Assembly (NCBI GenBank): GCA_963840455.1 | Contig: CAWIYV010000001.1 | Location: 128,001-192,000, forward strand | Origin: Nitrospirota bacterium | GTDB taxonomy: Bacteria; Nitrospirota; UBA9217 | Reading direction: 5' to 3' | Length of the DNA stretch: 64,000 nt | Part shown: in pieces, positions 1 to 19,298 of the stretch | Layout: each line of letters begins with the position of its first letter | How positions within the stretch are numbered: the stretch's first letter is position 1 | The notes under the pieces: model-generated | Database searches by the model: none | The model's input: only the letters and a program-made list of their open reading frames with translations | Told to the model about the DNA's origin: nothing | Position numbers and translations under genes: made by a program

Positions 1-42
1 GATATTACCGAGCCCCAGAATGGTAATGGTCGGTTCTTTCAT
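1..42 (-). CDS. hybD: Hydrogenase maturation endopeptidase HybD/HyaD family, 5' end only (runs off window)
   Basis: Minus strand from ATG at 42 reads MKEPTITILGLGNI (LGxGN motif of hydrogenase maturation proteases); GGAGGAG RBS at 53-59; directly downstream of the hydrogenase large subunit. Confidence 0.8.
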   Translation of the reverse strand, partial: MKEPTITILGLGNI

Positions 43-130: not shown

Positions 131-1831
131 TTACAGGGCCTTCACCGTGATGATATCTTTCCCTTTCGCATCGACCATGTGAATGGCGCAGGCCAGACAG
201 GGATCGAAGGAATGCACGGTCCGGAGGACCTCCAGAGGCTTTTCCGGGTCCGCCAGCGGCGTGCCGATGAGCGATGCTTCGTACGGGCCGGGTTGATCGC
301 TTCCGTTCCGCGGGGCTGCGTTCCAGGTTGAAGGAACGACGCACTGATAGTTTTTGATCTTCCCGTTGTCAATGACGCTCCAGTGTGACAGGATGCCGCG
401 CGGCGCCTCGTGGAAGCCAACGCCCTTGATCTCGCCGCTGGGGAACTTAGGCGCGTTGAAGGTCTTCACGTCGCCTTTGCCGATGTTGGCGACCAGAGCG
501 TTCCACTGGTTCGTGCACTCATCTAACAGCACCGCGCAGCGCACGGCGCGGGCGCCGATGCGGCCGATGGTCGAATGCAGCGCTGCTGGTCCGACCTTGG
601 TCTTGGCAACTGCACTGATCGTGTTTAGCATGTCGGTGACGTACTTCTTCGTCCCCGCATGACCGGCTGCGTACATGCAGAGCACATTGGCCAGCGGACC
701 GACCTGGGCGGTCTTGCCGTTGAACGTCGGCGCCTTGACCCATGAGTATTTTCCATCATACTGCATGCCCGTGTGGTTCGGGTCCGTAGACTCCTCCCAA
801 GGATGCTTGTTCCAGTCGCCCTTATACCAGGAGTGCTTGACGCTCTCTTTTACGCCGTTCTTGAAGAACTCGTCATTGAAGCTCTTGATGGGCTTAAAGG
901 TGCTGAAATCGGCGTTCTCGATGTATCCGCCCGGAAGAGCAAAGGTCGTTCCCTTCGTGTCCATGGGCATATCAGGAGCCGAAAGATAGTTCGTCACGCC
1001 TTTGCCGTACCCGGTCCAGTCGGCATACAAGGCTGCTACGGCCGCCACATCTACGAGCATGGCGTTCCTCACGAAGCTCTGGACCTCGTCGATAAGTGTC
1101 TTGATGTAGTAGAGCCTCTCCATGTTGAGCGCCGACTGGTTCTCCGGATTGATCGCGTTCGCCACGCCGCCGACCGCCAGGTTCTGGATGTTCGGCGTCT
1201 TGGACCCCAGAATGGACACCACCATGTTGATCCTGCGCTGGTAGTGGAGCGCCTGGAGGTAGTGTGCAGTAGCAAGGAGGTTCACCTCGGGCGGCAGTTT
1301 CATGGCCTTATGGCCCCAGTAGCCGTTCGCGTAAATGCCGAGTTGGCCGCTTTTTACAAAGGTCCCCAGCCGGTCCTGGACTTCCTTCATGTGCTTCGTG
1401 CTGTTCTGGTCCCAGTTCGAAAGGCTCTCACCGAGCTGCGACGCCTTCTTGGGGTCCGCCTTCAGGGCTGAGACGATGTCGACCCAGTCAAGGGCAGCCA
1501 GGTGGTAGAAATGCACAATATGATCATGGACGCCATGGGCTGCCATGATCAGGTTCCGGATATATTGCGCGTTCAGCGGTATTTCGAGCTGCAGGGCGTT
1601 CTCAACCGACCTCACCGAGGCCAGTGCGTGAACAGACGTTCAAACCCCGCAGATCCGTTGGGTAAAGAGCCAGACCTCCCGGGCGTCCCTGCCCTTCACG
1701 ATGTTCTCGATCCCGCGCCACATCTGGCCGGACGACCAGGCCTTGCTGACCTTGCCGTTCTCCACTTCGCATTCGATGCGCAGATGGCCTTCGATCCTGG
1801 TGATTGGATCTATAACGATTCTTTTCGACAT
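131..1831 (-). CDS. hybC: [NiFe]-hydrogenase large subunit (HybC/group 1c-like), 566 aa if the in-frame TGA at codon 64 is read as selenocysteine
   Basis: ORFs 1640..1831 and 131..1615 are in one frame, separated only by TGA at 1642-1640. Joined they read RIEGH...QRICGV(TGA)TSVHALASVRSVE...DPCLACAIH plus a C-terminal extension, colinear with hydrogenase-2 large subunits. Confidence 0.92.
1598..1639 (-). promoter_or_regulatory. Candidate bacterial SECIS element immediately 3' of the in-frame UGA
   Basis: mRNA after UGA reads ACGUCUGUUCACGC-ACUGGCCUC-GGU-GAGGUCGGU-UGAGAAC: 9-bp stem (2 G-U pairs), GGU apical loop starting 24 nt after UGA, possible lower GUUC/GAAC pairing. Confidence 0.75.
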
Positions 1832-1856: not shown

Positions 1857-3038
1857 TTATGCGTGCTCAGCCTTCGGCAGCACGGGGAATGTCTTGACTA
1901 TATACAAATAGGCCATGATCTCGAAGGAAATGATGCCCAGCGTTATCATGGTCTCCCCGAACGAGGGGAAATAGTTCCAGTTGTTCCCGGGATTGAACCC
2001 GACCAGATACGTGTCGAAACGATAGACCGCTCCGGCCAGCACCATCGCAGCTGCCGCCAGAAAGAGCTGCTTGGGCCGAGAGCGGTTCGCTGCCTGCAGG
2101 AGGATGATGAACGAATAGACATACAGGGCGTTCTCGATCCAGAACGCAAGGGCGTACTTGTTGAACTGGAACGCCATCCCGAACGCACCCCGCCAGAGCA
2201 GATCAGCGACCCGCACCAGGAGATAGGCACCAATAAGCCAGGGGATGATCCCCGAGAGCTTCGACAGGAAGGGCATCTCGATCTCGCGCTTGAACCCAAT
2301 GGATGAATAGATGGACTCAAAGACCACCATCGCGTATCCCATGGTGATGGCCGAGATCAGGAAGAGCAGAGGCAGGAATCCCGTCTGCCAGAGCGGATGG
2401 AGCTTTGCCCCGGAGATATACATCAGCGTGCCGAGCGAGGACTGGTGCATGGTCGGCAGGAGTACCCCAACGGCAATGAAGACGAATAACCACTTGTTCA
2501 GCGTCTTATGGATGCCTTCGACCTTCCATCCCTGGACGAACTTCGGCAGCTTGTCCTTGTGTTTGATGATGCCTTCCAGAAAAGCAGGTGTGAATTCGAT
2601 CCAGAGCACGGTGGTATAGGTCATCACGCAGAAGGCGACTTCAAACATGGTCGAGTTGATATTCGCATACCACGGGGTGAAGAGTTTCCAGCCATTCCAG
2701 TACCGTCCGATGTCAACCATGATGGATGCGCCCGCAAGCGTGTAGCCAAATACGCCTGCGAGCAGCGCGGGACGGACAAGCGGATGATACTCACCTTTGT
2801 TCATGACATAGACCAGCAATGCCATGGAATATCCGCCACAGGCTATGGCCGTGCCCACAACCACGTCATAGGCGATCCAGATGCCCCATGGATAACCGTC
2901 GTTCAGGTTCGAGACAGCCCCGATCCCGAAGATGTAGCGGATGCCGATCAGGATGACCGCAACGCCGAACAAGCCGGCAAAGAACAGAAATGGCTTGGTC
3001 AAAACATTTCCGCCTAAGGGTCTGCTTTCTTCCGACAT
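1857..3038 (-). CDS. hybB: Hydrogenase-2 membrane subunit HybB (NrfD/PsrC family)
   Basis: About 10 hydrophobic segments, GYPWGIWIAYDV and LLPTMHQSSLG motifs, position in the operon. Confidence 0.92.
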   Translation of the reverse strand: MSEESRPLGGNVLTKPFLFFAGLFGVAVILIGIRYIFGIGAVSNLNDGYPWGIWIAYDVVVGTAIACGGYSMALLVYVMNKGEYHPLVRPALLAGVFGYTLAGASIMVDIGRYWNGWKLFTPWYANINSTMFEVAFCVMTYTTVLWIEFTPAFLEGIIKHKDKLPKFVQGWKVEGIHKTLNKWLFVFIAVGVLLPTMHQSSLGTLMYISGAKLHPLWQTGFLPLLFLISAITMGYAMVVFESIYSSIGFKREIEMPFLSKLSGIIPWLIGAYLLVRVADLLWRGAFGMAFQFNKYALAFWIENALYVYSFIILLQAANRSRPKQLFLAAAAMVLAGAVYRFDTYLVGFNPGNNWNYFPSFGETMITLGIISFEIMAYLYIVKTFPVLPKAEHA

Positions 3039-3055: not shown

Positions 3056-4009
3056 TTATTTGTGATCCTTCGTGTTCTTATGCACCACGTACAGCAGACC
3101 GCCGAGGAATACGATCGGCGCGATCATGCCTTTGTAGATCGTGTGATTCAGCGTTTCCGACCGCTTCGCATCCGAAGCTTCCGTCAGGCTCGGCATGCCG
3201 AGCTTTTCGAACGGCACACCGGTAAGATAGAGGATCTGCGTGCCGCCGCCATCTTTCTCGCCATAGATCTTCTGGATGTAGGGGGTCACATCCCGCTCGG
3301 TCGTGACCGATCCACCGAGTTGCTCTACCGGATAGTTCTGTCGGCTCCCCGGTTTGTACTGGAGCCGCTTCCTGGCTTCAGCGAGAAGGTCTTCCACCTT
3401 GCCGTATACCGTGGCTCCCGTGGGACAATTCTTGGCGCACGCCGCAAACTCGCCCTTCTTCATCAGGTGATCGCATAGCTGGCATTTGCGGATCTGCGGG
3501 AAGGCCTTTTCAAATTCGAACTTCGGAACATTAAACGGACAGGCAAGTTGGCAGTAACGGCACCCGATGCAATTACCCTTATCGTAGCTGACAACGCCGG
3601 TCTTCGGGTCCTTGATCAGTGCCGATACCGGACATGCTGAAACACACGCAGGGTCCGTGCAGTGCATACACTGCCGCTTGACGTAGGCATGGCCGTCCTT
3701 TTCCCGGTCCTTCGCCACCCCCGTACCGTCTTTATAGAGCTTGATGATATTTAAGGTCTTGGAATCATCGTCTAACGCATTGTCCCAGAGCTGATCGCTC
3801 GAGGAGAAGCTCGGCGGCATTTCATTCGCCTGTTTGCAGGCGGAGACGCAGGCTTTGCAGCCGGTGCAGACCGTCGAATCATAGAGAAAGCCTACCGCAT
3901 CCTTTGCTCGCTCCTTGGGCTCGCGGGCAAGGACCGGATGTGCACTGGACGCCGCCATGAGGCCGCCGGCTGCAGCAACTTTCAGGAAATCTCTTCGTTT
4001 AATTTCCAT
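3056..4009 (-). CDS. hybA: Hydrogenase-2 Fe-S subunit HybA (Tat-exported, 4x[4Fe-4S])
   Basis: RRDFLK Tat motif; CTGCKACVSAC, CMHC..PACVSACP, CIGCRYCQLACP and CQLC..CAKNCP clusters; C-terminal TM helix. Confidence 0.93.
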   Translation of the reverse strand: MEIKRRDFLKVAAAGGLMAASSAHPVLAREPKERAKDAVGFLYDSTVCTGCKACVSACKQANEMPPSFSSSDQLWDNALDDDSKTLNIIKLYKDGTGVAKDREKDGHAYVKRQCMHCTDPACVSACPVSALIKDPKTGVVSYDKGNCIGCRYCQLACPFNVPKFEFEKAFPQIRKCQLCDHLMKKGEFAACAKNCPTGATVYGKVEDLLAEARKRLQYKPGSRQNYPVEQLGGSVTTERDVTPYIQKIYGEKDGGGTQILYLTGVPFEKLGMPSLTEASDAKRSETLNHTIYKGMIAPIVFLGGLLYVVHKNTKDHK

Positions 4010-4029: not shown

Positions 4030-5166
4030 TTATTTTTTCCCTTTGCCTTCATCTTCACCCAGCTTATGAGCAACTTTATTCACTGCTGCGAACGCAGCTC
4101 CAGCGGCTGCCGCTGCGACGACAACACCTCCGATGGTCGCACCCGTGCTCGCACCTTGCCTTTCTGCGATGTGCGGATAGGTGTCTGGTGGGGTCACCAT
4201 ATGCAGGCTGGCCTTGGTGAAGAGCGGCTTATGGAATCCGATGCCCTTCTCAGAGCATCCAAAGCACGGATGACCGCATCCTACCGGCCATGTTCCAGCG
4301 CCAGTATCGCCGAATAGCAGAGAAGGGCAATTGTTGAATGTCTCAGGCCCCTTGCACCCAAGCTTATAGAGGCAATATCCCTTGCGATGGTTGTCATCAC
4401 CGAACTCTGTGGCGAACCGGCCAGCGTCAAAGTGCGGCCTGCGCTCGCAGTTCTCATGAATGAGCCTGCCATAGGCGAACTTCGGCCTGGCCAACTCGTC
4501 GAGCTCCGGCAGTTTCTTGAAAGTGACGAAGTACAGAACGGTCGAAAGGAAATTGTAGGGATTCGGCGGACATCCGGGGATGGAGACCACCGGCGTCTTG
4601 ATGCCTGCGTCGGTGAGTATCTTATGAACCGGTGTGGCACCTGTCGGGTTGGGATCAGCGGACGGTACACCGCCCCAGGACGAGCAGGAACCCATCGCCA
4701 CGATCGCGAAGGCATCCTTGGCCGTGTCTTTAAGGATGTCCAGGGCCGTCCTGCCGGCAATCATGCAATAGATGCCGTTGTCCTTGACCGGTATGGCGCC
4801 ATCCACGACGAGGATGAACTTGCCTTTGTTCTCCTTGATCGAGGTTGCTCGTGCTTCCTCAGCCTGATGACCGGAGGGAGTGCTGAGCGTTTCGTGGTAA
4901 TCGAGGGAGATGAGATCGAGGATAAGATGTTCGAGGGTGGGATGTGTGGCCCGAAGCAGCGATTCTGTACAACCGGTACACTCCTGCGCCGACAGCCAAA
5001 TCACCGGCGGGCGCTTCGCCGCTCCTGCAACGGCCTCTGCGATCTGCTCGCCGGCACCGAGCGGCAGCCCCATGCCTGCGGCCACAATACTGCAATACTT
5101 GATAAACTCCCTGCGTGACACACCAAGCTGCTTGCTGACCGATTCAGTATCTTTGTTCTTCTTCAT
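4030..5166 (-). CDS. hybO: [NiFe]-hydrogenase small subunit (Tat-exported, C-terminal membrane anchor)
   Basis: SRREFIK Tat motif; ECTGCTES, GSCSSWGG, PGCPPNP, HENCERR, CLYKLGCKGP and GHPCFGC motifs. Confidence 0.94.
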   Translation of the reverse strand: MKKNKDTESVSKQLGVSRREFIKYCSIVAAGMGLPLGAGEQIAEAVAGAAKRPPVIWLSAQECTGCTESLLRATHPTLEHLILDLISLDYHETLSTPSGHQAEEARATSIKENKGKFILVVDGAIPVKDNGIYCMIAGRTALDILKDTAKDAFAIVAMGSCSSWGGVPSADPNPTGATPVHKILTDAGIKTPVVSIPGCPPNPYNFLSTVLYFVTFKKLPELDELARPKFAYGRLIHENCERRPHFDAGRFATEFGDDNHRKGYCLYKLGCKGPETFNNCPSLLFGDTGAGTWPVGCGHPCFGCSEKGIGFHKPLFTKASLHMVTPPDTYPHIAERQGASTGATIGGVVVAAAAAGAAFAAVNKVAHKLGEDEGKGKK

Positions 5167-18172: not shown

Positions 18173-19298
18173 ATGCTGCTCGACGAACTGAAACAGGATC
18201 TTGCCACGGTCAAGGACCGGATAGAATCCCTCCGGAGGCATCTTTGACACCCCTGCCAAGGAAGCCCGTCTCAACGACCTCACCCGCCTGTTAGAAGCAC
18301 CCGATTTTTGGAACAATCAGGACAAGGCGAACACCACGCTCAAAGAGAAGGCCGCGATCGAGCGGTCGCTTCGGGACATGGCCTCCCTTGCCCAGCGCCT
18401 GGGCGACCTGGAGGCCATGATGGAGCTTGCCTCTGAAGAGGGGGGGGAGGCCATGGTCGAGGAACTTGCGCGGGAGACCGCCGTGATCCAGAGCGATATC
18501 TCCCGGTCCGAGATAGCCGCCCTCCTGTCGGAAGAGCTCGACATGGTCAATGCCATTGTCTCGATCCACCCGGGAGCAGGCGGGGTCGAGGCCCAGGACT
18601 GGGCCGAGATGCTGATGCGCATGTACCTCCGGTGGGCCGAAAAGAGCGGTTTCGGAAGGGATATCCTCGACTATCAGGCCGGTGAGGAGGCGGGTGTGAA
18701 GTCCGTGACCTTTACCGTGTCCGGCGACTATGCCTACGGCAAGCTCAAGGCCGAAGCGGGCGTCCACCGGCTGGTGCGGATCTCCCCCTTCGATGCCAAC
18801 AAACGGCGTCATACGTCCTTTGCTTCGGTCTATGTGTACCCTGAAGTGAAGGAGGACATCGATATCACCATCGATGAGAAGGACCTCCGTATCGACACCT
18901 ACCGCGCGTCCAGCGCCGGCGGCCAGCATGTGAACAAGACGGATTCCGCGGTCCGCATTACCCACCTCCCCACGAACATCGTGGTCCAGTGCCAGAACGA
19001 ACGGTCCCAGCTCAAGAACAAGAACGTCGCCATGAAGGTCCTCCGCTCTCGGCTCTACGAGCTGAGGAAGAAGGAACAGGACGAAAAGCTCGGCAAGGTC
19101 GTGAGCGAGAAGAAGGACATCGCCTGGGGCAGCCAGATCCGGTCCTACGTGTTCCAGCCCTATCAGCTGGTCAAGGACCACCGTACCGGCATGGAGACGG
19201 GCAATGTGAACGCCGTGATGGACGGCGAGATCGAGCACTTCATCGAGGCGTATCTGATGGGGAGGAAAGCAACGGGAGAGGGAAAGGACCTGGAGTAG
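18173..19298 (+). CDS. prfB: Peptide chain release factor 2 with programmed +1 frameshift
   Basis: ATG at 18173, 24 codons to GGAGG-CAT-CTT-TGA-C (TGA at 18245); the +1 frame continues into ORF 18378..19298 with SPF and GGQ motifs. Confidence 0.95.

Follow-up and report, generated by a model that had tools for sequence, protein, structure and literature searches.

The DNA analysed here (hereafter the window) is a stretch of 64,000 nucleotides from the genome of a Nitrospirota bacterium (assembly GCA_963840455.1, contig CAWIYV010000001.1, positions 128,001 to 192,000), and an operon for a Hyb-type [NiFe]-hydrogenase lies on the reverse strand at its very beginning. The gene for the large subunit is hybC-like and occupies positions 131-1831 (-), where the frame runs for 566 codons up to a TAA and is interrupted by a single in-frame TGA, at codon 64 (window 1640-1642, -). 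Around this codon the product reads QRICGVU-TSVHA, with the TGA placed on the second cysteine of the N-terminal motif RxCGxC. How this UGA is read, and whether selenocysteine (Sec) is inserted there, is the subject of this study.

The predicted product matched Pfam PF00374 (NiFeSe_Hases) over its whole length (3.3e-217). Its closest solved structure was HybC, the large subunit of E. coli hydrogenase-2 (Hyd-2; 6en9_L), with residues 1-566 aligning to residues 1-567 (3e-238). In this alignment Cys64 of RICGVC lies opposite U64, and DPCMACAVH lies opposite the C-terminal nickel-binding motif DPCLACAIH, which covers residues 543-551 (window 179-205, -) and has both of its cysteines. The alignment also showed that Glu14, Asp103, the arginine of the PRG motif, the aspartate of the DPC motif and the cleavage site at the C-terminal histidine were retained. 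The 15 residues that follow DPCLACAIH (134-178, -) form a C-terminal extension which is presumably removed by a protease, as the solved mature HybC chains are 552 residues long. The first, terminal cysteine of RxCGxC is encoded by TGC at codon 61 (1649-1651, -), a position that is TGA in a sister clade with a UXXU motif described further below.

According to the available text of PMC5902676, the metal ligands of Hyd-2 are Cys61, Cys64, Cys546 and Cys549, and Cys61 and Cys546 are treated as thiolates that bind nickel only. Taken together with the available text of Evans et al. (2021; PMC8020662), these ligand roles would make Cys64, and by homology residue 64 of the window protein, one of the two ligands that bridge nickel and iron. 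The NCBIfam model 'hydrogenase 2 large subunit' scored the large subunit at 884.6 bits, under its cut-off of 969. For both the large and the small subunit of the window the best-scoring NCBIfam models were of the Hyd-2 type even though both scores stayed under the equivalog cut-offs, which suggests that the two proteins are distant Hyd-2 orthologues rather than members of another family.

The remaining genes of the operon lie on the same strand and are intact, in the order small subunit, HybA, HybB, large subunit and protease. The hybO-like small subunit (4030-5166, -) matched Oxidored_q6 and NiFe_hyd_SSU_C, and NF007779 with 501 bits (cut-off 659, not reached). It is followed by a hybA-like ferredoxin-type subunit with a twin-arginine translocation (Tat) signal (3056-4009, -; NF008134, 439 bits, above the cut-off of 263) and by a hybB-like membrane subunit of the NrfD family (1857-3038, -; NF008133, 526 bits, above the cut-off of 450), and these two subunits stand in place of a cytochrome b. 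Only the start of a hybD-like maturation endopeptidase gene is found in the window (1-42, -), from which the gene runs off; its continuation (L022:912-1409, -) matched the HycI family (2.3e-30), and a HypB-like gene comes after it outside the window. An earlier first-pass annotation, made from the sequence of the window, had described the TGA at codon 64 as the sole break in the gene, a C-terminal DPCLAC motif with both cysteines and an otherwise intact operon (hybO, A, B and the start of D), and had proposed a HybOABC architecture still matured by C-terminal cleavage; translation, the HybC alignment and the family matches bore out the described features, and the HybOABC(D) architecture and the cleavage site were found intact.

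A second [NiFe]-hydrogenase large subunit, of the cytoplasmic type, is encoded outside the window in the same genome (G000:C14:405508-406785) and reads RICGICSIGH ... DPCISCSVH. A TGA directly follows its C-terminal histidine and acts as the stop, so this subunit would have no cleavable extension. The possibility that this gene represents a canonical hydrogenase with a C-terminal Sec was considered and rejected, the TGA being a mere stop after DPCISCSVH.

Orthologues of the large subunit were then compared at codon 64 in a set of 41 related genomes. Eight of the 11 closest orthologues have TGA at this codon, and the remaining three have TGC. The TGA carriers are all six genomes of the genus together with genomes of two other genera, at 78-96% protein identity, and the three TGC orthologues are 72-78% identical. 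A wider scan used one genome per prokaryotic species and a degenerate pattern around the motif; it returned at least 120 stretches, and 80 loci were analysed. Among the matches listed, 78 of the 80 loci were hydrogenase large-subunit genes reading QR[I/F][C/U]GVU and two were chance matches. In sum, at least 50 distinct genes with TGA at the second N-terminal ligand codon only (CXXU) and at least 40 with TGA at both (UXXU) were found, the CXXU genes being those of the eight related genomes plus 43 scan loci, of which one duplicated one of the eight and was removed. By their record titles these genes span at least six phyla (Nitrospirota, Chloroflexota, Thermodesulfobacteriota, Spirochaetota, Nitrospinota and Rokubacteria/Methylomirabilota), and chance does not account for so many TGAs at this one codon. 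In none of the 61 listed scan loci that reach the C-terminal motif was a U found there; the motif always reads DPC..C..H.

The pattern of variation behind the TGA is that of a translated sequence. Across codons 65-72, which lie ahead of any downstream start codon, the column entropy was 0.47, 0.29 and 1.34 at codon positions 1, 2 and 3, respectively, and within the window's own clade 16 of the 19 variable columns after the TGA are third positions. Since codons 65-72 vary almost only at third positions, an untranslated gap after the TGA is ruled out.

A hairpin resembling a selenocysteine insertion sequence (SECIS) follows the UGA at 1605-1625 (-). Counted from the U of the UGA, its uninterrupted 9-bp stem pairs positions +17 to +25 with +29 to +37 and encloses the loop GGU at +26 to +28; it is thus a hairpin shortly after the UGA with a G early in its apical loop, as a SECIS element should be. 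Of 300 synonymous recodings, a single one produced a stem as long as this within the permitted zone (p = 0.003). Behind the TGA of two formate dehydrogenase genes of the same genome, a 9-bp stem likewise occupies +17 to +25, and the triloop that it encloses, GGG, occupies +26 to +28. This position-restricted stem statistic and the comparison within the genome were used because folding energy was not significant. Applied to the UXXU genes, the stem statistic gave p <= 0.05 in none of 40.

The hairpins of 91 Sec-type genes fall into three registers (R1, R2 and R3), for which reason a single consensus hairpin for all 91 genes was rejected; the hairpin of the window belongs to R1. Clear compensatory changes were found in R2, the commonest register, where one pair is AU in 20 genes, UA in 17 and GC in 10. 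The covariation score of R2 was 0.190 compared to 0.127 in shuffles, was reached by 0 of 500 shuffles, and was higher than that of every slid control. The changes at the R2 pair alter amino acids as well (AGC...GCT, TGC...GCA, GCT...AGC and GCC...GGC). R3 and R1 showed little covariation, which in the case of R1 is due to the close relationship of the genes in the window's clade.

The machinery for Sec insertion is present in the source genome, an assembly of 14 contigs that is 100% complete by marker genes. It has a canonical tRNA-Sec (66.5 bits, G73), selA and selB genes that adjoin each other, and a selD gene that contains a TGA of its own in the motif CGUxxK. At least five formate dehydrogenase-like genes have an in-frame TGA, which suggests that the organism uses Sec heavily. 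Two of them are tandem formate dehydrogenase alpha genes outside the window (G000:C8:21374-24481 and C8:28578-31700) that share the motif ARIUHSATV and near-identical SECIS hairpins; three more lie elsewhere in the genome. Among the related genomes, selA was found in all eight that carry a CXXU gene. No selA, selB or tRNA-Sec above the cut-off was found in two genomes of one genus with UXXU genes (G007 and G024, 89% and 86% complete). In both of these, formate dehydrogenase genes contain an in-frame TGA, as does selD in G007, so the gaps were read as incomplete assemblies and a different decoding system in these two genomes was rejected. Given that selA and selB are adjacent in the source genome, one missing contig would probably account for the gap.

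These findings make it quite probable that the window encodes a functional Hyb-type uptake [NiFe]-hydrogenase, Hyd-2-like, membrane-bound and periplasmic, in which UGA64 is recoded instead of terminating translation and Sec occupies the position of a bridging ligand. The in-frame UGA is conserved, selection for translation acts on either side of it, a SECIS-like hairpin follows, the Sec machinery is in place, and Cys and Sec have interchanged repeatedly at this site, as set out below; from these observations I infer selenium insertion, the bridging geometry and any catalytic consequence. In the proposed mechanism, SelB would bind the hairpin 17-37 nucleotides downstream and bring Sec-tRNA(Sec) to UGA64. 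By homology with E. coli Hyd-2 and hydrogenase-1 (Hyd-1), residue 64 would bridge nickel and iron, and since it corresponds to the bridging cysteine, a Ni-Se-Fe bridge is expected in the mature enzyme with both C-terminal cysteines kept. The large subunit would receive its metals in a Hyp-dependent manner and then be cut after His551 by the HybD-like protease. It would be exported together with HybO by the Tat pathway, and electrons would pass via HybA and HybB to the quinone pool.

Several results weigh against this interpretation. The 76-nucleotide fold around the UGA is unremarkable when compared to dinucleotide shuffles (z = -0.30), the 48 nucleotides that follow the TGA show no advantage in folding energy over synonymous recodings (z = -1.06 for the window's own gene), and the folding energy behind the TGA reached p <= 0.05 against recodings in just 11 of 91 genes. 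The covariation score of R1, the register of the window, was reached by 9 of 500 shuffles, and shuffles gave counts at least as high for pairs and cells with changes on both sides and for additional pair types. Nor can the two kinds of gene be told apart by the hairpin alone, because the TGC-type orthologue L029 (in G020, 78% identical) has retained one that closely resembles that of its CXXU relative L030. This is compatible with a recent reversion from Sec to Cys or with a hairpin that existed beforehand, and Cys-type Group 4 enzymes likewise keep hairpins according to the available text of Takano et al. (2026; PMC13582414). Contigs from RNA libraries that retain the TGA, presented below, do not prove transcription since DNA may have been carried over. 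Sec in CXXU hydrogenases, including this one, is predicted from sequence only. Lastly, the source genome has a second tRNA of the selC* type, owing to which UGA64 may give Sec, Cys or both.

This second tRNA-Sec-like gene lies outside the window (G000:C9:389439-389529; L002:1501-1595) and scored 52.9 bits, above the Rfam cut-off. Its predicted fold (8/4) has stems of 8 bp (acceptor), 6 bp (D) and 4 bp (T) and a long variable arm, with the anticodon UCA and U73 followed by CCA. Orthologues in G005, G017 and G010 share U73 and have compensated substitutions in their acceptor stems, and the gene is conserved in four of the six genomes of the genus as well as in further genera. As far as the available text of Mukai et al. 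(2017; PMC5389517) goes, selC* tRNA-Cys is defined by U73 and a GCA or UCA anticodon and occurs in Thermodesulfovibrio and Nitrospirae; the second tRNA, being tRNA-Sec-like with U73 and UCA, fits this definition. Such tRNAs are also known as tRNA-ReC and, according to the available text of Takano et al. (2026; PMC13582414), can read SECIS-dependent UGA as Cys. A helper gene beside the second tRNA was looked for and rejected, as the 1.5 kb to each side contained nothing but a LysR-type regulator and a weak DsrE-like frame; the 3 kb around the tRNA gene showed no additional selB or cysS.

As an alternative, UGA64 could be read mainly or only as Cys, by a selC*-type Cys-tRNA delivered via SelB and the same hairpin, in which case the enzyme would be a regular [NiFe] Hyd-2 with Cys at every ligand position, at least under selenium shortage. 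The co-resident tRNA with its conserved U73 speaks for this reading, as do the selC* definition and Nitrospirae occurrence given by Mukai et al. (2017; PMC5389517), and the same caveat is raised for Group 4 enzymes by Takano et al. (2026; PMC13582414), both as far as their available texts go. I nevertheless consider it unlikely. The charging of the selC*-type tRNA with Cys is only predicted, and a canonical tRNA-Sec (G73) is present together with selA and selD in a genome where TGA is in use in selD, in hybC and in five formate dehydrogenase-like genes. If Cys were wanted, a TGC codon would be simpler, as is seen in P0002, a Cys-type protein that is 83% identical and the closest of its kind among the best 120 database relatives; the TGA has been retained instead through the whole genus and in many separate clades. 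In addition, no selC*-like tRNA at E <= 1e-8 was found in four of the eight CXXU relatives (G002, G003, G009 and G011, which are 93-100% complete). The full Sec pathway, the retention of TGA where TGC would do, and the lack of a detectable selC*-type tRNA in half of the CXXU relatives led me to rate Sec as the main product.

A broader scheme that accommodates both tRNAs is offered here tentatively, as possible and somewhat doubtful. One gene may give rise to two enzymes, UGA64 being read as Sec by tRNA-Sec or as Cys by the selC*-type tRNA, both via SelB and the same hairpin, depending on selenium supply. The bridging selenolate might then be a selected form of catalytic tuning that arose many times in Group 1 and was joined by a second, terminal Sec in the RIUGVU clade. 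If dual decoding were true, selenium supply would determine whether the cell produces a Hyd-2-type hydrogenase with a Ni-Se-Fe bridge or an ordinary one.

Returning to the recoding of UGA64, it must also be asked whether the TGA could be a genuine stop that leaves a pseudogene or only a 63-residue peptide. UGA is an ordinary stop in this genome, as the first-pass annotation had recognised. The gene for release factor 2 (RF2), prfB, lies within the window (18173-19259, +) and contains, at codon 25, the classical CTT TGA C site for programmed +1 frameshifting (18242-18248), with GGAGG ahead of it. Of the window's 45 open frames with 300 codons or more, 18 end in TGA. Gene callers also treat it as a stop. 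Among the best 120 database relatives of the large subunit, 12 are fragments of 485-495 residues that start just past the TGA, and 108 are full-length Cys-type proteins, in line with the earlier expectation that automated annotation would split the gene. A loss of function is hard to reconcile with a TGA that is kept in at least 50 distinct genes under strong purifying selection on both sides, with 72-96% protein identity across genera, with 566 codons free of any other stop or frameshift, and with an intact operon and protease gene, so this explanation was judged very improbable.

The fragments made by gene callers point to a related explanation, namely a split gene. The GTG at codon 73, which the callers use, opens a frame of 494 codons, and the hydrogenase could in principle be made of a 63-residue piece with Cys61 and a 494-residue piece, which would leave three protein ligands to nickel. 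Codons 65-72 (TSVHA...) would then be untranslated, and yet they are conserved with variation at third positions; moreover, every TGA coincides exactly with a codon for a ligand, and the sister clade has one at each of the two. This arrangement seems more improbable still.

The TGA was also recovered independently of the assembly. Contigs from other sequencing runs that extend over codon 64 keep it in one DNA run (X5) and in two RNA-library runs (X16 and X15) from one further study. Record 23 of X16 is identical over 1604-1696, no contig difference was listed at 1640-1642, and the differences around the TGA are spaced at 3 nucleotides. The possibility that TGC or TGT was misread or misassembled as TGA, for which no supporting point was found, can be dismissed, as these contigs and the same codon in eight related genomes and at least 43 CXXU scan loci (one of them a duplicate) refute it.

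The history of the trait was followed in a FastTree phylogeny of 187 large subunits (42 CXXU, 31 UXXU and 114 CXXC), in which the TGA-encoded ligand positions were treated as gaps and the Cys-type sample comprised only the best matches to the window's protein. On this tree the motif type changes at least 13 times. The CXXU genes form at least six separate clades among Cys-type Hyb enzymes, and the gene of the window falls into a clade of nine beside the 83%-identical Cys-type protein. Switching between Cys and Sec was thus repeated, and the tree is compatible with gains and losses alike.

In a sister clade of Group 1 large subunits, ~53% identical to the window protein, each of the two N-terminal ligands is encoded by TGA (QRIUGVU), and the C-terminal motif DPCMAC is of the Cys type. 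The clade comprises at least 40 distinct genes (L033-L037 and 35 within L044-L120) from Nitrospirota, Chloroflexota and Methylomirabilota. In these genes two UGAs 9 nucleotides apart are followed by one hairpin with covarying pairs. An example is found at L046:3344-5059 (+), where genes for the small subunit, the large subunit, a cytochrome b, a protease and HypB follow one another in this order.

What is known of [NiFeSe]-hydrogenases from structure, spectroscopy and electrochemistry concerns Sec as a terminal nickel ligand in the C-terminal motif, and natural selenium in the Ni-Fe bridge had previously been hinted at from a few sequences only. The present results show that genes for CXXU hydrogenases occur commonly among uncultured anaerobes from soil, wetland and subsurface habitats, that the trait was repeatedly gained or lost, and that annotation has hidden it. 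Surveys based on called proteins undercount or truncate these genes. They also provide a defined gene family for experiments on how bridging selenium may affect the Ni-Fe distance, hydride binding, O2 sensitivity and catalytic bias.

Among known systems, E. coli Hyd-2 (HybOABC; 6EN9, 6EHQ and other structures), 'Group 1c' in the HydDB scheme, is the closest match in the full length of the large subunit, the gene order, the conserved residues listed above, whose roles are given in PMC5902676, and the 15-residue tail; it differs in having a Cys codon at position 64 where the window has UGA, and the window enzyme is a distant orthologue. The canonical [NiFeSe] enzymes (HysAB of Desulfovibrio vulgaris Hildenborough; 1CC1 of Desulfomicrobium baculatum) belong to the same superfamily and also have a UGA-encoded nickel ligand. 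In these enzymes Sec stands first in the C-terminal motif and serves as a terminal nickel ligand, whereas the window protein has Cys there, and the window subunits scored well below the HysA model (344 bits, cut-off 780) and the NiFeSe small-subunit model (236 bits, cut-off 470). The canopy residue also differs, being Ser in [NiFeSe] enzymes according to the available text of Evans et al. (2021; PMC8020662) and Asp in the window protein.

The same text reports a Sec variant of E. coli Hyd-1, C79U, which carries Sec at the ligand position that corresponds to residue 64 of the window protein. It matured and oxidised H2 at 13% of the native activity, the best of four Sec variants, with a lower Km for H2, and was almost inactive at 10% O2. 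This enzyme is artificial, with a UAG-programmed Sec delivered by EF-Tu into an O2-tolerant Group 1d scaffold, and its activity may be taken to argue for the chemical plausibility of a bridging Sec.

Natural enzymes with N-terminal Sec are treated by Takano et al. (Front Microbiol 2026; PMC13582414), in whose available text Group 4 enzymes with CXXU, UXXC and UXXU motifs are described, the latter two as previously unrecognised. These resemble the enzyme of the window in having Sec at N-terminal positions only, in sporadic and repeated origins from Cys-type enzymes, in the association with selC*/tRNA-ReC, and in being truncated by gene callers. They are cytoplasmic-facing and energy-converting, in contrast to the periplasmic Hyb-type uptake enzyme of the window with its C-terminal extension and protease, and Groups 1-3 were excluded from that study. 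A review of prokaryotic selenoproteins from 2026 lists only UxxC hydrogenases, which it calls 'exclusive' to sulfate reducers and methanogens (PMC13188914).

Bridging Sec itself has been noted before. As related in the available text of Takano et al. (2026; PMC13582414), Baltazar et al. (2011; Eur J Inorg Chem) described N-terminal CXXU motifs in two sequences of Group 1 and one of Group 3, with a Sec predicted to bridge nickel and iron, and 'purported examples' are mentioned in that of Evans et al. (2021; PMC8020662). The gene of the window is therefore of a kind already noted in print and not a new kind. Of the proposal in the first-pass annotation that it represents a distinct natural [NiFeSe] enzyme, the conserved UGA at the bridging position and its translation were upheld; the suggested distinctness did not survive the prior art, and decoding as Cys had been overlooked. 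A literature search returned no report of the breadth of the trait in Hyb-type enzymes, of its repeated origin, or of a Group 1 UXXU form. Judged by this search and by what the available text of PMC13582414 states, the new elements are the breadth of the CXXU trait, the repeated switching between Cys and Sec, and the Group 1 UXXU clade. The Group 1 sequences of Baltazar (2011), as cited there, share with the window gene the predicted Sec at the second N-terminal cysteine and likewise come from sequence data, and they may or may not include members of the clade to which the window gene belongs. Where that study is cited for two Group 1 sequences, the present set comprises at least 50 genes from at least six phyla, together with evidence from the hairpin, the tRNAs and the phylogeny.

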